From: a virus
Reading direction: 5' to 3' (one strand)
DNA: 64,000 nt
Virus record (IMG/VR): IMGVR_UViG_3300044620_001904
Coordinates: 31,262 to 95,261 of that record
Shown here: positions 20,701 through 33,886 of the stretch, piece by piece
Position numbering within the stretch: position 1 is the first letter of the stretch
How the letters are laid out: the number at the start of each line of letters is the position of its first letter
The notes under the pieces: generated by a model
Databases searched by the model: none
What the model was told of the DNA's origin: nothing
Seen by the model: only the letters and a program-made list of their open reading frames with translations
Program-made: the position numbers and the translations under genes

Positions 20701-21453
20701 TTAATCCGTTATTTTTACAACTTCATCACCTAAAAGTTCTTTAACTTCTCTATAACAATTAAGTTCTGGTAACCAAATTCTATGGTTACCTGTTAGTTTA
20801 AGAATTTTACCTGAAATTAATTCAATTTCATACCAATCATTATTATTTTTTTGTACTGAGTGAGAATTTATGGTGTTCATTTCGTTTTTGTTTTCAAAAA
20901 CATTAAAACTCAAAACTTTACCAATATATTTAGTTTCACAAATTTCTTTGATTGTTTTAATACCATCTTCAGTTATTAATTCGGTTTCTTCAGATAAACA
21001 TCTCACCTCGTCGGTTTTAGATATAAATGATGGAAACAAACCTTTTACCTTACCAGCAAGTTCTGCCGGAATTGGAGGCTCGTATTTATTAATCCCCAAC
21101 ATCATAGTTACATCCATACCAACCTTAAAATCTAAGTTAGTGTAATTAATTAACGATAAAGGTAAAATCAAACCTTGACTAACCTGTCCGCGAAGTTTTA
21201 CGGTTCTCAAACGAAAACCTTCAGAACCGTCGGCCATCTTTTTATATGATGATTTTCGCAAAAATTCGAATTCAGGTTTAATAGGTAAAAATGAGTCAAT
21301 TTCGCAATAAACTACTTTGTCACCAACTTTGTGACCTACATCTTTTGCAACAACTACTTTCCATCCATCAACGATGGCCAATTCTATTTTATCAGCACCC
21401 TCAATTGGGCGCAAATCAGATATAATTCTAATACTTGCTAATTTTCTTTCCAT
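20701..21453 (-). CDS. N-terminal half of DRB0094-type RNA ligase fused to an N-intein (99 aa)
   Basis: RKLASIR..PIEGADKIE..LRGQVSQGL..KTDEVR|CLSEET..LTGNHRIW (intein blocks A and B). Confidence 0.9.
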   Translation of the reverse strand: MERKLASIRIISDLRPIEGADKIELAIVDGWKVVVAKDVGHKVGDKVVYCEIDSFLPIKPEFEFLRKSSYKKMADGSEGFRLRTVKLRGQVSQGLILPLSLINYTNLDFKVGMDVTMMLGINKYEPPIPAELAGKVKGLFPSFISKTDEVRCLSEETELITEDGIKTIKEICETKYIGKVLSFNVFENKNEMNTINSHSVQKNNNDWYEIELISGKILKLTGNHRIWLPELNCYREVKELLGDEVVKITD

Positions 21454-21458
21454 TTTTT

Positions 21459-21833
21459 TTAAATTTTTTCAGTAAATAAACCATCTTTTATTGCCAAATC
21501 AAACATCTCTAAGATATCTTTATAAAATAGTTCATATTTCAAAATTTCAAGCTCACCTTCTTTTTCAATATCAATGTCATCAAACCATTCGGGTTTTAAG
21601 TCATATAGATTAATATTATCTTTTACCGCATGTTTTAAAACAGGATAAAACTCATTCAACAACCATTTAGTATTATCCCAAATAAATTCATATGAAAAAC
21701 CACCATTAGAGTTCTTACGATTGACGCAATTAAAAGAACGATTATAAAAATTACCATCATTATCAACCAATGCCGATAATTCAAATTGAATATATTCAAT
21801 TTGTTCTGAGCAATATTTAACTACTTTAAACAT
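21459..21833 (-). CDS. hypothetical protein
   Basis: 124-aa ORF in operon. Confidence 0.55.
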   Translation of the reverse strand: MFKVVKYCSEQIEYIQFELSALVDNDGNFYNRSFNCVNRKNSNGGFSYEFIWDNTKWLLNEFYPVLKHAVKDNINLYDLKPEWFDDIDIEKEGELEILKYELFYKDILEMFDLAIKDGLFTEKI

Positions 21834-21915
21834 TTTATAAAAAATCGATTTTCATCCCACAAACTAAATATTTGTCGGTTTTTCGGTGGGGTTATATAAA
21901 ATTAATTGATAATTT

Positions 21916-22053
21916 CTAATTATCAAAATCATCTGAACGGAATTTTCCTTTTTTGTCCTGATTTTTTTTGTTTGACTTGTTTTTGTTGTGATTACCGTTT
22001 GAACTCTTAGATTTCGGCATATCACCTTTCTGATTACGATACGTTTTACCCAT
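21916..22053 (-). CDS. small basic peptide MGKTYRNQKGD...DDFDN (45 aa; not in ORF track)
   Basis: ATG abuts the stop of the upstream gene; translated by hand. Confidence 0.5.
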   Translation of the reverse strand: MGKTYRNQKGDMPKSKSSNGNHNKNKSNKKNQDKKGKFRSDDFDN

Positions 22054-22298
22054 TAGTATTTTGTAACTGAATAATTTCCACAAACAATTTGTTCATTATC
22101 AAATATATCATTAAAGAAAATACAACCACTTTCTTGTTTGATAATGTTTTTTGCCTGATAACACCTTCCTATTTCGTTTGAAGTTATTTCATAATAAGTC
22201 TTGTTTGAACTTATATTTGTATTAAAAATAAAATTCATCGCAAATATTAGAACAATTGAAACTATAACAAATATTGAGTTTTTTTTCAAACCGAGCAT
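22053..22298 (-). CDS. small membrane-anchored protein
   Basis: N-terminal hydrophobic helix. Confidence 0.5.
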   Translation of the reverse strand: MLGLKKNSIFVIVSIVLIFAMNFIFNTNISSNKTYYEITSNEIGRCYQAKNIIKQESGCIFFNDIFDNEQIVCGNYSVTKY

Positions 22299-22312
22299 TT
22301 TTTTACAAAAAT

Positions 22313-22549
22313 CTAAAACTTTACCAAAAAGTCAATATGTGCAAAACCTTTATTTGTATGAACTGTAATTTCATTTTCATCAATTCTAGGCTCAAAACTC
22401 AAAATTGTTGCAAAACCAGCTTCTTTATCTTCATGTCTTACAACTTCTCCTACGGTAAAAATATTACCATATGAATTTATAGCTGTGTTATTATCAACAG
22501 ATATGAAATTTTGTCTTTTTGATATATTTTCCATGTTAACCAACAACAT
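22313..22549 (-). CDS. hypothetical protein
   Basis: ORF in operon. Confidence 0.5.
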   Translation of the reverse strand: MLLVNMENISKRQNFISVDNNTAINSYGNIFTVGEVVRHEDKEAGFATILSFEPRIDENEITVHTNKGFAHIDFLVKF

Positions 22550-23204
22550 TTTTTAATTCATCAGTATGGTGATCAAACTCCATATCTGAAATGATATTAC
22601 GTTTAATCATAATCGGAATAATCTCTTCAATTAAATTATAAGGTCTAAATTCTGTGGAACCATCAATACCAACATCCATTTTGCGACCTTTACCAAATTT
22701 TTTGTGGTTTGGTAAATGAACATGCCCGTGAAGATGGATCACACCTTTATTTAAACCATTCCAAGATGAGAGGGGGTAGTGCATTAAAACAAATTTTTTA
22801 CCACCAACAGATAATTCAACATAATCATTTACGCTTTTAAATAATCCTTTACACCCACCTCTATTTCTTTCAATGTTATGATCGTGATTACCTAAAATCA
22901 AATGTATGTTTTTACAAACAATTCTATCCCAAAAATTACGAATGTTCTCAAAACCTCCAAAAGACCAATCACCAAGATGAAATAAAATATCATCTTGATT
23001 AACAAATTCATTAATATTATTGACAATAGATGCATTCATACTATCTATGGATTCAAAATCTCTAGTCTGATCAATAGGAATTGATCCATCGTTTAACCTC
23101 CAATCTGTAACTCCACGACAAATATTTTTGTGCCCATAATGAGTATCTGAGGTGATCCAAATATTTTGAGATGAACTTGATAGTTCTATTTTAATACTAC
23201 TCAT
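22536..23204 (-). CDS. calcineurin-like metallophosphoesterase
   Basis: SDTHYGH, HLGD, GNHD, HGHVH. Confidence 0.9.
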   Translation of the reverse strand: MSSIKIELSSSSQNIWITSDTHYGHKNICRGVTDWRLNDGSIPIDQTRDFESIDSMNASIVNNINEFVNQDDILFHLGDWSFGGFENIRNFWDRIVCKNIHLILGNHDHNIERNRGGCKGLFKSVNDYVELSVGGKKFVLMHYPLSSWNGLNKGVIHLHGHVHLPNHKKFGKGRKMDVGIDGSTEFRPYNLIEEIIPIMIKRNIISDMEFDHHTDELKNVVG

Positions 23205-23242
23205 AGATTACAAAGGTATAAAAAAATTTTAAAAAAACAAAA

Positions 23243-23650
23243 TCAAAATTGAAATTGTTCAAATGCTTTTAAGTATGATGAAATATTTTCAGCCCCTACC
23301 GGATTCATTGAATGGACGACAAATTTTGGTAATTTTAAACTATTATCTAAGCAATAATCAACCAACCATTTGGCACAATCTAAACCTGTTTTTTCTTTAA
23401 AAGATTTTGACATGTCATCATAATTTGTCAAATACAATGATTGATCATAATGTTCGTCAGCAAGATCGTGATCAAATGAAATTAAATAAGGTAATCCATT
23501 TGTTGATATGTAGTTAACAAATTCATCGTAGTTTTTAACCACAATCCATTCTTCTCGGGTATACATTGCAGAATCCTCGGTTCTTAACCTCATATATGAA
23601 ACGCAATGATCAGGATTTCTGAAATCGTCTAAAAATAAGTAAGTTTTCAT
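23243..23650 (-). CDS. cyclic-phosphate-processing receiver-like domain protein
   Basis: LFLDDFR..ISFDHDL..TGLDCAKWL..VHSMNPVG. Confidence 0.7.
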   Translation of the reverse strand: MKTYLFLDDFRNPDHCVSYMRLRTEDSAMYTREEWIVVKNYDEFVNYISTNGLPYLISFDHDLADEHYDQSLYLTNYDDMSKSFKEKTGLDCAKWLVDYCLDNSLKLPKFVVHSMNPVGAENISSYLKAFEQFQF

Positions 23651-24686: not shown

Positions 24687-24693
24687 TTTTATG

Positions 24694-24777
24694 TTACCGG
24701 GGTAGGGTTCGAACCTACACAGGGATTTCTCCCAACAGATCCAAAATCTGCTCGCTTGCCAATTTGCATACCCGGCA
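24694..24777 (-). tRNA. tRNA-Gln(TTG) with long variable arm
   Basis: GCAGA-TTTTGGA-TCTGT; extra arm GGGA-GAAA-TCCC. Confidence 0.7.
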
Positions 24778-25007: not shown

Positions 25008-25209
25008 ATATAAAACACCCTAATTTATCCAACTTACAGGTGTTGCGGTTGTCCTCATTTCTGAGTTAGGAATAGTCATTTGTCCTTACGAGGTCGAGTT
25101 GACTTGCTCTGAAGTTATCCCCCTCCACTCCAATGTAGGTTCCCATACGGCGATCAAACCGTTTTTCATCGTATTGGGCGTACTATCCGTTGTCGTGTTT
25201 CGGAACGTG

Positions 25210-25760
25210 TAGTCAGGACAGGATTCGAACCTGTATGGGTTTTTGAGACATCACTTCCTCTCGGTGTTCCACCCAGTTTATTTCAACTTGCGTCTACCAA
25301 TTCCGCCACCTGACTATTCGTTATTTCATTTTTTGTACTTCTTCAATTAACTCAATAAACATTGATTTTGTTATATGTTCCTGCTTTACCCACATATAAA
25401 TTACCCCCATTCTTTCGTGGTAATCTTTTTTAACTTGTAATTTTTCAATCAAATCTTTTATCATAACCTCGTATTTTATTTTGTAGTCAGGACAGGATTC
25501 GAACCTGTAATGATATGCCCCGCACATATCTGGATGGTCTAGAATTAGTTGTATAATTCGGAATTCACCACAATGTTACCAATTACACCACCTGACTATT
25601 TGAGGATGAGAAGTCCTCTGTGTTGTAAGTTTTAGAACCAAAGGAACCGCACTCATCCATCCTTTCTCAAGGGAACAACAAATTAGTAGTCAGGATTGGA
25701 CTCGAACCTGTTTTTCCTCCTTCCCTTTGTCGGAAGTTGTGCTCCTTACACCACCTGACT
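25210..25760 (-). repeat. three tRNA-like shells (25210-25315, 25484-25597, 25687-25760) with identical AGTCAGG acceptor stems and unrelated central inserts
   Basis: AGTCAGGTGG..(variable)..ACAGGTTCGA.TCC..TCCTGACTA occurs three times. Confidence 0.75.
25321..25464 (-). CDS. small hypothetical protein MIKDLIEKLQ... (47 aa) between tRNA-like shells
   Basis: 3' part of the track ORF; the 5' extension overlaps a tRNA-like element. Confidence 0.5.
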   Translation of the reverse strand: MIKDLIEKLQVKKDYHERMGVIYMWVKQEHITKSMFIELIEEVQKMK

Positions 25761-25975
25761 ATTCACCCCACCTTGAGATTTGAGGTGAGTAGTTATTTCG
25801 GTTTTCTATTTCTTAAAAACCTGCGGGGCGTCCCCCATTAAAACAGCCAACACTACTGGGAGAGATTGTGTCAGTCCCTTTATCCCACGATGTCCCACTC
25901 TAGCCGTAGACATTCTGCTAGTCCATTGTTAAATGAGTCTTGGACAAAAGACTGCTGAGTATCTCTTACTCATTG

Positions 25976-26644: not shown

Positions 26645-26742
26645 ATTTTTTATACCAACAATGTCAAAGAACCTTGTTCTAATCTTTCACAAAGGTAAAT
26701 CAAATTTTTTAATCCAACAAATCTATGTGAAAGATTTTTTTG

Positions 26743-26824
26743 AGGAAAGGGTGGGAATCGAACCCACGTTGAGAATTAACTCGCAGATTAACAGTCTGCT
26801 GCCTGGCCTCTAGGCTACCAATCC
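26743..26824 (-). tRNA. tRNA-Asn(GTT) with long variable arm
   Basis: GCAGA-CTGTTAA-TCTGC; two acceptor mismatches. Confidence 0.75.
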
Positions 26825-28658: not shown

Positions 28659-28672
28659 ATTCTATTTTTGTG

Positions 28673-28758
28673 AGCCAAGGGCCGGATTCGAACCGGCGTG
28701 TGAGTAAACTCATCCTCATTACAAGTGAGGTGCAATCGACCATCTATGCGACCTAGGC
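28673..28758 (-). tRNA. tRNA-Thr(TGT) with long variable arm
   Basis: CT-TGT-AA loop; extra arm TGAGT-TT-ACTCA. Confidence 0.85.
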
Positions 28759-29252: not shown

Positions 29253-29263
29253 AAATTATTTTG

Positions 29264-29349
29264 TAGTGCCGATGGGATTCGAACCCACGATTATCCTTTC
29301 GGATTCCAGATTGAAAGTCTGGTAGCCTAAACCACTAGCCGACGGCACC
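29264..29349 (-). tRNA. tRNA-Glu(TTC) with long variable arm
   Basis: CT-TTC-AA loop; extra arm ATCC-GAAA-GGAT. Confidence 0.85.
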
Positions 29350-32560: not shown

Positions 32561-33886
32561 TTAAAGTCCGTTATCAGTATTAACTTCAGGATCTAACTCA
32601 AGATCAGGGTCTTTAGTTGACAACCCTTGACTCAAATATTCATTTTTATGAGATTTCCATGCTTTTTGTGTTCTAGGTCCGAACCTACCATAACCTTTAC
32701 CTCTCTCGACTTTACCTGTAGGATAAATTGAACCATAGGCCCAACCCGCATGGTTACTATCTAACCAATCTTGGAATTTCATAACACCAGTTGCATCTTT
32801 TAATTCTGGCGGTATCGGAACTTTTATTCTAACAGGTTTCGATCTGTCAGATCCACCACCTGATGATGAGTCACCACCATCAGATACTCGCTCAGTATTA
32901 AAACTTTTACTAAGATTAATACCTCCAATCGTCATCTCACATAAAATGTCTTTAGAATATAGTTTATTTTCATTTATATAAGTTTTATATTTTTTAATAG
33001 ACAATTTACCACCAGAACAAGAATATTCACCAGCACCTTGAGGTTTTTTATCATTAGTCATACACCAAATTTTACCACTATCAAATGTTTGGGTTCCCGG
33101 ATTGCGGTCAAAATAACAATATCCACCACCGTCTTCGCTAGGCGCTACCGCCCTTGTATTACCAGACCCCTTAATACCAGTTAATTTCGAGAGGCATAAA
33201 AATTTATTATTTGTCTCCGATTTAGCCTTTTCCGATTTAGCCTTTTCAATTTGACTGGAATACTGTTGTAATAATGATTCGGTCTTATCTAGAATTTCGG
33301 ACCACTCATTTGTCTCAAGCTCGTATTGTAAAGCGTCAGATAATCTAACACCAGGTTTTAATTTTTCCCTGAAATATTTATCAACCAAATACAAATCGAC
33401 TAAACTATTTATACTATCCATTGCGGTCCTAATTGCCGATTCGTCAGTCCCAAAACCCGTCCCAAAAAAATTTTCATACATTGCGTCATAAAGTGTTCTA
33501 GCCACAATTTTAGGGTCGAATCCGGGTGTTTGTTCAAATTTAAGTCCTTTTATACCTGATGTTAAGCTAGAACCCATGTTTACGGCTCCTTGGAATTTTT
33601 TTGATGGTTCATCAGTCCTTAATGAACTAACTAATAAATCTTGGAGATGAGCGTATACTGCGGCGCATCCTACGGCCGCTGGAACTGCGGCGAGACCCCA
33701 ACTAGCGATACCTGCGGCCGTTCCACAGACAGCTCCAATAATTGTTGCTCCTACCGTTCCTTCAGAAGACTGACTCTCTTTTAATATATTATCCTTATTT
33801 TCACTTAAAGTTTTTCTTGAGTCGTAACCCATCATAAGTTTAATTCTTTGTAAATCCTCTAATGGATTATAATTTTGTATTTTCAT
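32561..33886 (-). CDS. hypothetical protein with annexin-like GxGTDE segment
   Basis: DAMYEN..GFGTDESAI; Gly/Ala-rich hydrophobic segment. Confidence 0.55.
   Translation of the reverse strand: MKIQNYNPLEDLQRIKLMMGYDSRKTLSENKDNILKESQSSEGTVGATIIGAVCGTAAGIASWGLAAVPAAVGCAAVYAHLQDLLVSSLRTDEPSKKFQGAVNMGSSLTSGIKGLKFEQTPGFDPKIVARTLYDAMYENFFGTGFGTDESAIRTAMDSINSLVDLYLVDKYFREKLKPGVRLSDALQYELETNEWSEILDKTESLLQQYSSQIEKAKSEKAKSETNNKFLCLSKLTGIKGSGNTRAVAPSEDGGGYCYFDRNPGTQTFDSGKIWCMTNDKKPQGAGEYSCSGGKLSIKKYKTYINENKLYSKDILCEMTIGGINLSKSFNTERVSDGGDSSSGGGSDRSKPVRIKVPIPPELKDATGVMKFQDWLDSNHAGWAYGSIYPTGKVERGKGYGRFGPRTQKAWKSHKNEYLSQGLSTKDPDLELDPEVNTDNGL

Follow-up and report, generated by a model that had tools for sequence, protein, structure and literature searches.

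We analysed a 64,000-nt stretch of phage DNA, positions 31,262 to 95,261 of the IMG/VR virus record IMGVR_UViG_3300044620_001904 (the window, to which the coordinates below refer unless another record or locus is named), and in particular three transfer RNA (tRNA)-like elements in it that have a constant outer frame and unrelated middles; we call the frame the shell and the middle the insert. The window is part of a 95-kb record with a CheckV completeness of 32%, from which a phage genome of roughly 300 kb follows. ARAGORN predicts 24 tRNAs on the minus strand in a cluster spanning 23.6-29.4 kb of the window, and the three elements are situated within this cluster, between tRNA-Tyr and tRNA-Leu(UAA): copy A at 25210-25315 (106 nt), copy B at 25484-25597 (114 nt) and copy C at 25687-25760 (74 nt), which are copies 1, 2 and 3 of an initial annotation of this region. 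All of them are encoded on the minus strand, so the strand used in that description has to be corrected. Read 5' to 3' on the minus strand, tRNA-Tyr is followed by a non-coding leader of 214 nt (25761-25974), copy C, a spacer of 89 nt (25598-25686), copy B, a micro-gene with an open reading frame (ORF) of 47 codons (ORF47, 25321-25464), copy A and a further spacer of 202 nt (25008-25209) that leads to tRNA-Leu(UAA). The remainder of the 95-kb record contains no additional shell copy. As set out below, copies A and B are members of a very large, phage-only RNA family for which we found no description in the literature.

The acceptor stem AGTCAGG/CCTGACT with discriminator A is common to all three copies, exactly as the initial annotation had it, and a 23-nt consensus of the 3' end (3' part of the T arm, CCTGACT and A) has three exact matches in the 64 kb, compared to 0.00 expected from 100 shuffles. 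The near-identical T arms that had been described hold for copies A and B, in which T arm and acceptor are identical (ACAGG-TTCGAAT-CCTGT-CCTGACT-A), but not for copy C, in which changes at three T-arm positions abolish two of the five T-stem pairs. The flanks of all three are those of the family, with ..AAT directly before AGTCAGG and a 3' end that reads ..ACT-A-C. The middles of the three copies are mutually unrelated. Copy A carries a D arm of the consensus tRNA-Leu type (GGCGGAATTGGTAGACGC), and its insert of 55 nt is predicted to fold into a hairpin of 4 bp with a 6-nt loop plus two further hairpins, without an anticodon arm. The D arm of copy B reads GTGT-AATTGGTA-ACAT, and its insert of 64 nt is predicted to form a long interrupted arm (36 nt) and a 7-bp hairpin, GATATGT-GCGGG-GCATATC. 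Copy C has a reduced D arm and a predicted 5-bp stem with the loop GACAAAG, so that A33 stands in place of U33, which is universal in elongator tRNAs. These folds bear out what had been noticed for copies 1, 2 and 3, i.e. a non-canonical anticodon arm with a branched insert, two long hairpins, and a compact form with a GACAAAG loop, respectively.

In a test for a decoding arm (5-bp stem, 7-nt loop, U33 and a purine at position 37) all three copies fail. Of the characteristics of tRNA-Leu, copy A has the D arm and A73, and copy B has them in part; the layout of a long variable arm plus an anticodon arm is absent. The Rfam tRNA model (RF00005) scores copy B at 40.9 and copy A at 38.4 bits, above its gathering score of 29, only because it treats the whole anticodon region as an insertion; copy C stays under this threshold with 27.0 bits. 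ARAGORN, which had been suggested as a check, calls copy C as tRNA-Leu(CAA) and leaves copies A and B uncalled. A family model that we built from 43 other family members (R1) gives 78.3 bits for copy A, the top match of the window, and 58.2 bits for copy B, compared to 51-54 bits for the real tRNA-Leu genes of the window.

As family members we counted elements with the acceptor AGTCAGG/CCTGACT or a covarying one, a Leu-type D arm, the T arm ACAGG-TTCGAAT-CCTGT and a non-canonical middle; copies A and B fall within this definition. The initial annotation had proposed a search for the shell across phage genomes, and this search was productive: the shell 3' end is present in at least 120 IMG/VR contigs with one to six copies per contig (many with two to six), and the loci that we collected contain 227 different non-canonical AGTCAGG elements of 66-219 nt. 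Complete jumbo genomes contain two to five copies. The contigs that carry shells have a G+C content of 26-53%, and their ordinary tRNAs have varied acceptors (29 different ones in 33 tRNA-Met). Among 185,579 prokaryote species genomes the shell pattern is found in only 20, all of them contigs of metagenome-assembled genomes (MAGs) from lakes, of which many are binned as Bacteroidota (Chitinophagia, Flavobacterium or Saprospirales); from this we conclude that the shell does not belong to a host tRNA. Summed over contigs, the depth in three lake DNA runs reaches 685-1447 exactly over copies A and B, compared to ~8-76 alongside, and from this jump it is evident that many other phages of those lakes carry the same shell. 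The constant frame, which carries hundreds of different folded inserts, is among the most repeated sequences in lake viromes. Literature searches yielded no description of this tRNA-Leu-shell family, and a 2023 catalogue of 10,006 viral structured RNAs holds five candidates that overlap tRNAs, none of which resembles it. Some members receive an anticodon from ARAGORN, and shell genes are at present missed or miscalled as tRNAs with arbitrary anticodons, e.g. copy C as Leu(CAA). One shell in a related locus (L342, positions 2064-2195) joins the acceptor AGTCAGG and the T arm of the family to a D arm of class I type (GTAGCTCAGTTGGTTAGAGC) in place of the Leu type; the acceptor/T half is therefore combinable with another D arm.

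In a second scan the acceptor was left free, and the fixed parts were the D arm of Leu type and the T loop. AGTCAGG is then found in about half of the non-canonical elements, and other acceptors come with matching 3' strands, e.g. AGTCCTG/CAGGACT, AGCAAGG/CCTTGCT and TACCGGG/CCCGGTA. Eight canonical tRNA-Leu genes share this D arm; they possess proper anticodon arms and start with G in six cases, with C in one and with T in one. In the alignment of the 43 members both sides vary in all seven acceptor pairs, and 97.7% of the acceptor cells are paired, compared to 30-41% after sliding the partner, a value that has to be read against a descriptor demanding at least six of seven pairs. The acceptor helix covaries, and selection therefore acts on the RNA. 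Moreover, U8, A14, A15, G18G19, U48 and the T loop are kept across the family, so that the tRNA elbow should form. A lenient anticodon-arm test is passed by just 6 of 233 AGTCAGG elements. With regard to the ends, the shells have T at position -1 in 80%, C74 in 98% and A76 in 81% of cases; the corresponding values for the canonical tRNAs of the same loci are 69%, 98% and 77%. Where a locus contains another tRNA, it is always on the same strand as the shell, at a median distance of 363 nt. As the shell flanks match those of the neighbouring real tRNAs, processing by the tRNA machinery (RNase P/Z-type) is a reasonable inference from the sequences. A peptide tail encoded by the shell 3' end was considered and rejected, since ORFs starting with ATG are found in just 42, 27 and 22 of 194 shells for the three frames; in copy A, an ORF of 12 codons ends at the TGA within CCTGACT.

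The inserts are highly diverse, with 199 clusters for 234 inserts, and the middles are unrelated in sequence and in length (20-130 nt). On average they fold more stably than their shuffled counterparts (mean z = -0.88, n = 226). Recurring insert classes keep their helices by compensatory changes, as in GTTGAA/TTCAAC versus GAGCAA/TTGCTC or in GCAGTAAC/GTTACTGC versus GCAGTATC/GATACTGC. In a class with 14 members the closing pair of the hairpin is UA in seven, AU in four and GC in three cases, and the loop UCGUAAS as well as the linker AAAUAGA are kept across different D arms and acceptors. These kept loops and linkers and the compensated helices point to a sequence-specific function of at least some inserts. 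The initial annotation had taken the three elements for tRNA scaffolds that display variable RNA; at the level of the family, the constant shell, the covarying acceptor, the hundreds of unrelated inserts and the compensatory changes all support this view.

Several other explanations of the inserts were tried and dropped. Antisense pairing to the phage's own genome is at chance level for 95 kb, with no stretch of 10 nt or more for insert A and 11 nt for inserts B and C; in whichever orientation, no match to the 95 kb exceeds 13 nt (insert A, same sense), which is likewise at chance level. An origin from other genomic sequence was rejected, as a BLAST comparison of the inserts with all collected loci matched mostly other shell elements. 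The word TTGAAATAAAC, common to insert A and to an element of Flavobacterium phage FL-1 (see below), does not qualify as a family module: the full word occurs only in copy A, and its looser forms TGAAATAAA / GAAATAAAC / TTGAAATA are found in 3 of 406 elements. Under a permissive model, a single deletion that restores an anticodon arm is possible in 35 of 214 inserts (16%), compared to 23.2 ± 5.9 (11%) after shuffling; copy A is negative in this test and copy B positive by a permissive, chance-level solution (5-bp stem, 7-nt loop). With the inserts near the shuffled level, splicing to normal tRNAs, which the initial annotation had named as evidence that would speak against scaffolds, was not borne out. 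A comparison of the rates of inserts and flanks was uninformative, because the pairs with both flanks alignable stem nearly all from one phage population; pairs picked by insert similarity are biased for such a comparison.

Two related loci illustrate how these regions change. In L255 a neighbouring gene is 97% identical and the array is 92% identical until ~10 nt into copy C, from where a single shell of 119 nt with another insert stands for C, B, ORF47, A and tRNA-Leu(UAA). L342 has four shells with one to three micro-ORFs between each; here the 3' flank of copy A is found behind a shell with another insert, and an 87%-identical ORF47 homologue lies downstream of that shell, not upstream. 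From these differences we conclude that shell regions turn over fast. The proposal that the elements act as recombination units for the cassettes between them is weakly favoured by the breaks of homology inside or at the shells of the relatives. However, homology in one flank only is as common at ordinary tRNAs (207 pairs with one flank versus 165 with both) as at shells (129 versus 133), so that shells cannot be assigned as special recombination sites and their role as particular recombination joints was discarded. A culturable relative of the shells is possibly present in Flavobacterium phage FL-1. This cultured phage has an unannotated intergenic element (L316, positions 1496-1667, corresponding to ~19626-19797 of KY421186.2) with a Leu-type D arm (GGCGGAACTGGTAGACGC), the T arm GGGGG-TTCGAAC-CCCCT, an acceptor-like helix of 6 bp and a middle of ~118 nt; it has no Rfam match, and R1 matches its 5' part only, with 27 bits.

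The shells are tightly packed with micro-ORFs. The ATG of ORF47 is located 19 nt past the 3' end of copy B, with GAGG upstream, and its stop codon ends 5 nt ahead of the 5' end of copy A. ORF47 homologues on metagenome contigs have a constant length of 47 aa and 78-98% identity; these homologues come from a protein database only, as the 3.2 Mb of collected loci yielded none, and ORF47 matches no Pfam family. A sense micro-ORF covers at least 60% of the spacer in 37% of the shell-shell spacers, compared to 9% for antisense ORFs and 20% for tRNA-tRNA spacers. Pooled over the three spacer types (shell-shell, mixed, tRNA-tRNA), 56 spacers are filled by an ORF, and in these the gap between the stop codon and the element that follows has a median of 8.5 nt. 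The spacer between C and B is structured (z = -2.2, with 25598-25685, i.e. 88 of its 89 nt, folded) and ends, 4 nt ahead of B, in the hairpin GAGGA-CUUCUCA-UCCUC (~25602-25618), the loop of which is found again upstream of shells in other phages. Another hairpin, with the loop CAAAUCUCA (25764-25790, minus strand), stands just ahead of copy C. Indeed, a leader hairpin is present directly upstream of 24% of the shells, compared to 8% in shuffles, and its recurring loops are GAAAGA (19), CUUCUCA (5) and xxAAUCUCA (4). The 214-nt leader is 92% identical in L255, has a G+C content above that of its surroundings and is overlapped by a 231-nt contig of the metatranscriptome run X24 (record 11; 25731-25961, three differences), which is maybe DNA carry-over; the stretch 25761-25974 could represent another small RNA or else a leader. 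In the 202-nt spacer between copy A and tRNA-Leu(UAA) folding is not above expectation (z = +0.3), and an L342 shell whose insert is different is followed by the same ~25 nt with which this spacer starts (CACGTTCCGAAAC...).

Directly downstream of the tRNA array, a set of RNA-repair genes extends over 17328-23650 on the same strand. It comprises a T4 Rnl1-type RNA ligase (17328-18389, minus strand), an RNA ligase encoded by two genes that bear the halves of an intein (19021-19689 and 20701-21453, minus strand) and between which a Vsr/DUF7487 gene is located, a metallophosphoesterase (22536-23204, minus strand) and a cyclic-phosphate receiver domain (23243-23650, minus strand). Such a set would suit a phage that has to cope with tRNA damage, but we see nothing that connects these genes with the shells. 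At a distance of ~10 kb from the tRNA array lie a phage tmRNA (13488-13880, plus strand; Rfam 96.8 bits) and a GOLLD RNA (14698-15097, minus strand; Rfam 330.5 bits). Within the array, four class I decoding tRNAs on the minus strand, Gln(UUG) (24693-24777), Asn(GUU) (26742-26824), Thr(UGU) (28672-28758) and Glu(UUC) (29263-29349), are 83-87 nt long and have an extra hairpin in the variable region of the predicted fold, e.g. GGGA-GAAA-UCCC. In bacteria a variable arm of this kind is normally confined to Leu, Ser and Tyr tRNAs, and working tRNAs, too, seem to acquire arms in this phage lineage.

How can the shells be understood? With a probability of roughly 0.5, we consider them to be non-decoding carrier RNAs that are derived from class II tRNA-Leu and excised by the tRNA machinery, with the shell providing for processing and stability and the insert as the working part; in addition, the shells probably punctuate micro-gene transcripts, e.g. 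that of ORF47 between B and A. Judging from the gene arrangement, the shells would be transcribed within the phage tRNA operon, on the same strand. The tRNA machinery would then recognise the acceptor stem, the T arm and the D/T elbow, cut both ends and complete the CCA end, as the identical flank signals suggest. The expected product is a stable L-shaped RNA which, as the sequence shows, lacks an anticodon arm and cannot read codons. In place of the anticodon and variable arms it would display the folded insert, whose compensatory changes and kept loops argue for it being the working part, most likely by binding a protein or a second RNA. The spacing statistics are consistent with each shell also being a cut site that would trim the small mRNAs or RNAs between shells, here that of the 47-codon gene. 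Finally, the constant arms might conceivably let phages exchange inserts and neighbouring cassettes by recombination. A more tentative extension of the carrier reading, possible in our view yet rather doubtful, is a natural RNA-display system run by phages of lake bacteria, in which a nearly invariant tRNA-Leu chassis ensures processing and stability and presents folded modules of fast turnover that bind proteins of the host or of rival phages, e.g. defence nucleases, and are swapped by recombination in the chassis arms. If this were true, the family would be the RNA counterpart of a variable-domain protein family.

A number of observations weigh against the carrier reading. Copy C is a marginal member, for its R1 score of 28.5 bits is lower than that of several ordinary tRNAs, and its T stem is broken; it may be a degenerate or minimal member, maybe one that is decaying. 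The inserts of A and B have no relative among the collected elements, and selection on them is therefore extrapolated from other insert classes. A target did not emerge for any of the inserts. No motif is common to all inserts, which have only the G-run and C-run words typical of stems, and Rfam at its gathering threshold finds nothing but tRNA in 16 multi-shell loci (140 kb). Nor does the 95-kb record itself contain a stretch with significant complementarity to any of the three inserts of the window. The discriminator is not strictly A (~11% G and ~4% U in the unbiased set), which weakens any role requiring leucylation, and the nucleotide sequence of the shell is more nearly invariant than the needs of processing alone explain. 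In the metatranscriptome run X24 there are few contigs, the one at 25731-25961 and a piece of 18 nt of the shell, possibly DNA carry-over; they are no evidence for expression of A or B.

The main rival is that the shells do nothing but punctuate, as dummy tRNAs that give RNase P and the 3' enzymes the cut sites for freeing micro-mRNAs and small RNAs, with an insert that folds harmlessly. This accounts for the conserved parts being exactly those that processing enzymes read (acceptor, T arm and elbow) and for the extreme diversity of the inserts. It also fits the tight packing of micro-ORFs in 37% of the shell-shell compared to 20% of the tRNA-tRNA spacers with their stop codons close to the next element, ORF47 with its 19 and 5 nt to B and A, the four L342 shells with micro-ORFs between them, and the excess of hairpins just upstream of shells. 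However, carrying 50-130 nt of insert would be wasteful for a task that real tRNAs could fulfil, and some insert classes keep loop and linker sequences, beyond helices, across different shells. Processing needs no single sequence, yet the shell is near-invariant, and RNA1 and RNA2 of phage T5, discussed below, are annotated as stable, i.e. there the tRNA-like piece itself accumulates. We therefore regard punctuation as the sole function as unlikely; carrier and punctuation functions may both hold. If instead the shell were the working part, CCA-tailed and perhaps leucylated, it could act as an acceptor-end decoy or leucine carrier that soaks up host factors such as tRNA-targeting toxins or occupies the synthetase, while the insert blocks decoding. 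In favour of such a role, the Leu D arm with A14, A15, G18G19, U48, the T loop and mostly A73 are conserved, a set which we take to correspond to the identity elements of E. coli tRNA-Leu; leucyl-tRNA synthetase requires neither anticodon nor variable arm. The RNA-repair set directly downstream suggests that tRNA damage matters to the phage, and several copies per genome would raise the dose. Against it stand the discriminator G or U in ~15% of members and the low copy number (2-5 per complete jumbo genome), and no link of the shells to any particular toxin was found. As this role would leave the long inserts and the selection on their structure and loops unexplained, we judge it still less probable than mere punctuation.

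What remains is that the elements are decaying duplicates of tRNA-Leu, or tRNA genes from which the inserts are spliced out, and this we hold to be highly improbable. Copy C with its broken T stem, A33 and sub-threshold score would agree with it, as would the anticodons that ARAGORN assigns to some members and the 5-bp stem and 7-nt loop that insert B could leave. Nevertheless, hundreds of elements have a perfect shell with wholly different middles, the opposite of neutral decay, and the acceptor covaries. Thus decay, which the initial annotation had raised as a second objection, does not apply to the conserved and widespread family, only perhaps to copy C. Inserts are hardly more often restorable than shuffled ones (16% versus 11%), no splicing system of bacteria or phages is known to us that would act on inserts as short and unconserved as these, and the window already holds decoding tRNAs for Leu(UAA) and Leu(UAG) according to ARAGORN.

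Among known systems, punctuation by tRNAs in mitochondria and the t-elements of plant mitochondria come to mind. These tRNA-like structures are described as cut sites that set the ends of neighbouring mRNAs (PMC1920247). The shells are similar in that micro-ORFs abut them within a few nt, here known from the gene arrangement; they differ in that the former belong to organelles and that t-elements do not combine one constant shell with changing inserts. Bacterial YrlA (Y RNA-like) RNAs are non-coding RNAs with a tRNA-like elbow (PMC4201824). In contrast to the shells, the ends of YrlA form a Ro-binding stem and the tRNA-like part is internal, and the shells of the window match only tRNA in Rfam. 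Some YrlA RNAs are phage-encoded next to tRNAs. With bacterial class II tRNA-Leu (RF00005) the shells have in common the D arm, which is the same as in canonical tRNA-Leu of other phages, the T loop, U8, A14, G18G19 and U48, and in most members A73, but they lack the anticodon arm of 5 bp and 7 nt with U33, and their first pair is A1-U72 where the canonical tRNA-Leu genes of our scan have mostly G1.

Closer in setting are the small stable RNAs of well-studied phages. At the end of the T4 tRNA cluster lie rnaC (species 1 RNA) and rnaD (species 2 RNA). In the former, an acceptor-like helix closes the T arm CCGGG-UUCGAAU-CCCGG and the middle is long and folded, but a D arm is not recognisable (R1 gives a partial match of 30 bits); rnaD is not tRNA-like in our predicted fold, and neither of the two has a Leu-type shell. 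In phage T5, RNA1 (144 nt, NC_005859 30501-30644) and RNA2 (125 nt, 32959-33083) are recorded as 'tRNA-like stable RNA with unknown functions'. Our literature searches found no paper on their function and no description of a constant-shell family with exchangeable inserts for them. Like the shells, both belong to a phage tRNA cluster, with small ORFs and an HNH endonuclease as neighbours, and in the predicted fold both combine acceptor, D arm and T arm with a long structured middle that replaces the anticodon arm. RNA1 has a Leu-type D arm (GGAAUUGGUAGAC), and the T arm of RNA2 (GCAGG-UUCGAAU-CCUGU) is as in the shell; the acceptor sequences differ from that of the shell, and the number of such genes in T5 is two. 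With R1, RNA1 is matched from end to end (32 bits) and RNA2 partially (20 bits). The architecture is common to both systems, but as ordinary tRNAs score equally or higher, close kinship does not follow. Should the shells be processed and stable as proposed, they could explain what the stable RNAs of the T4 and T5 tRNA clusters exemplify. They would also amount to a large and so far unexploited collection of natural folded RNAs, with host factors of defence or translation conceivable among the targets.

The nearest parallel in design is man-made. In the engineered 'tRNA scaffold' for recombinant RNA in E. coli, a structured RNA reportedly replaces the anticodon arm and is processed and stabilised by the cell like a tRNA. 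This is the same design as that of the shells, but with a single insert that is closed by the anticodon stem, whereas in the natural shells the anticodon and variable arms are replaced together, often by several hairpins. If the shells are indeed processed and stable, phages would have long been using the scaffold design of RNA engineers, and at a very large scale.

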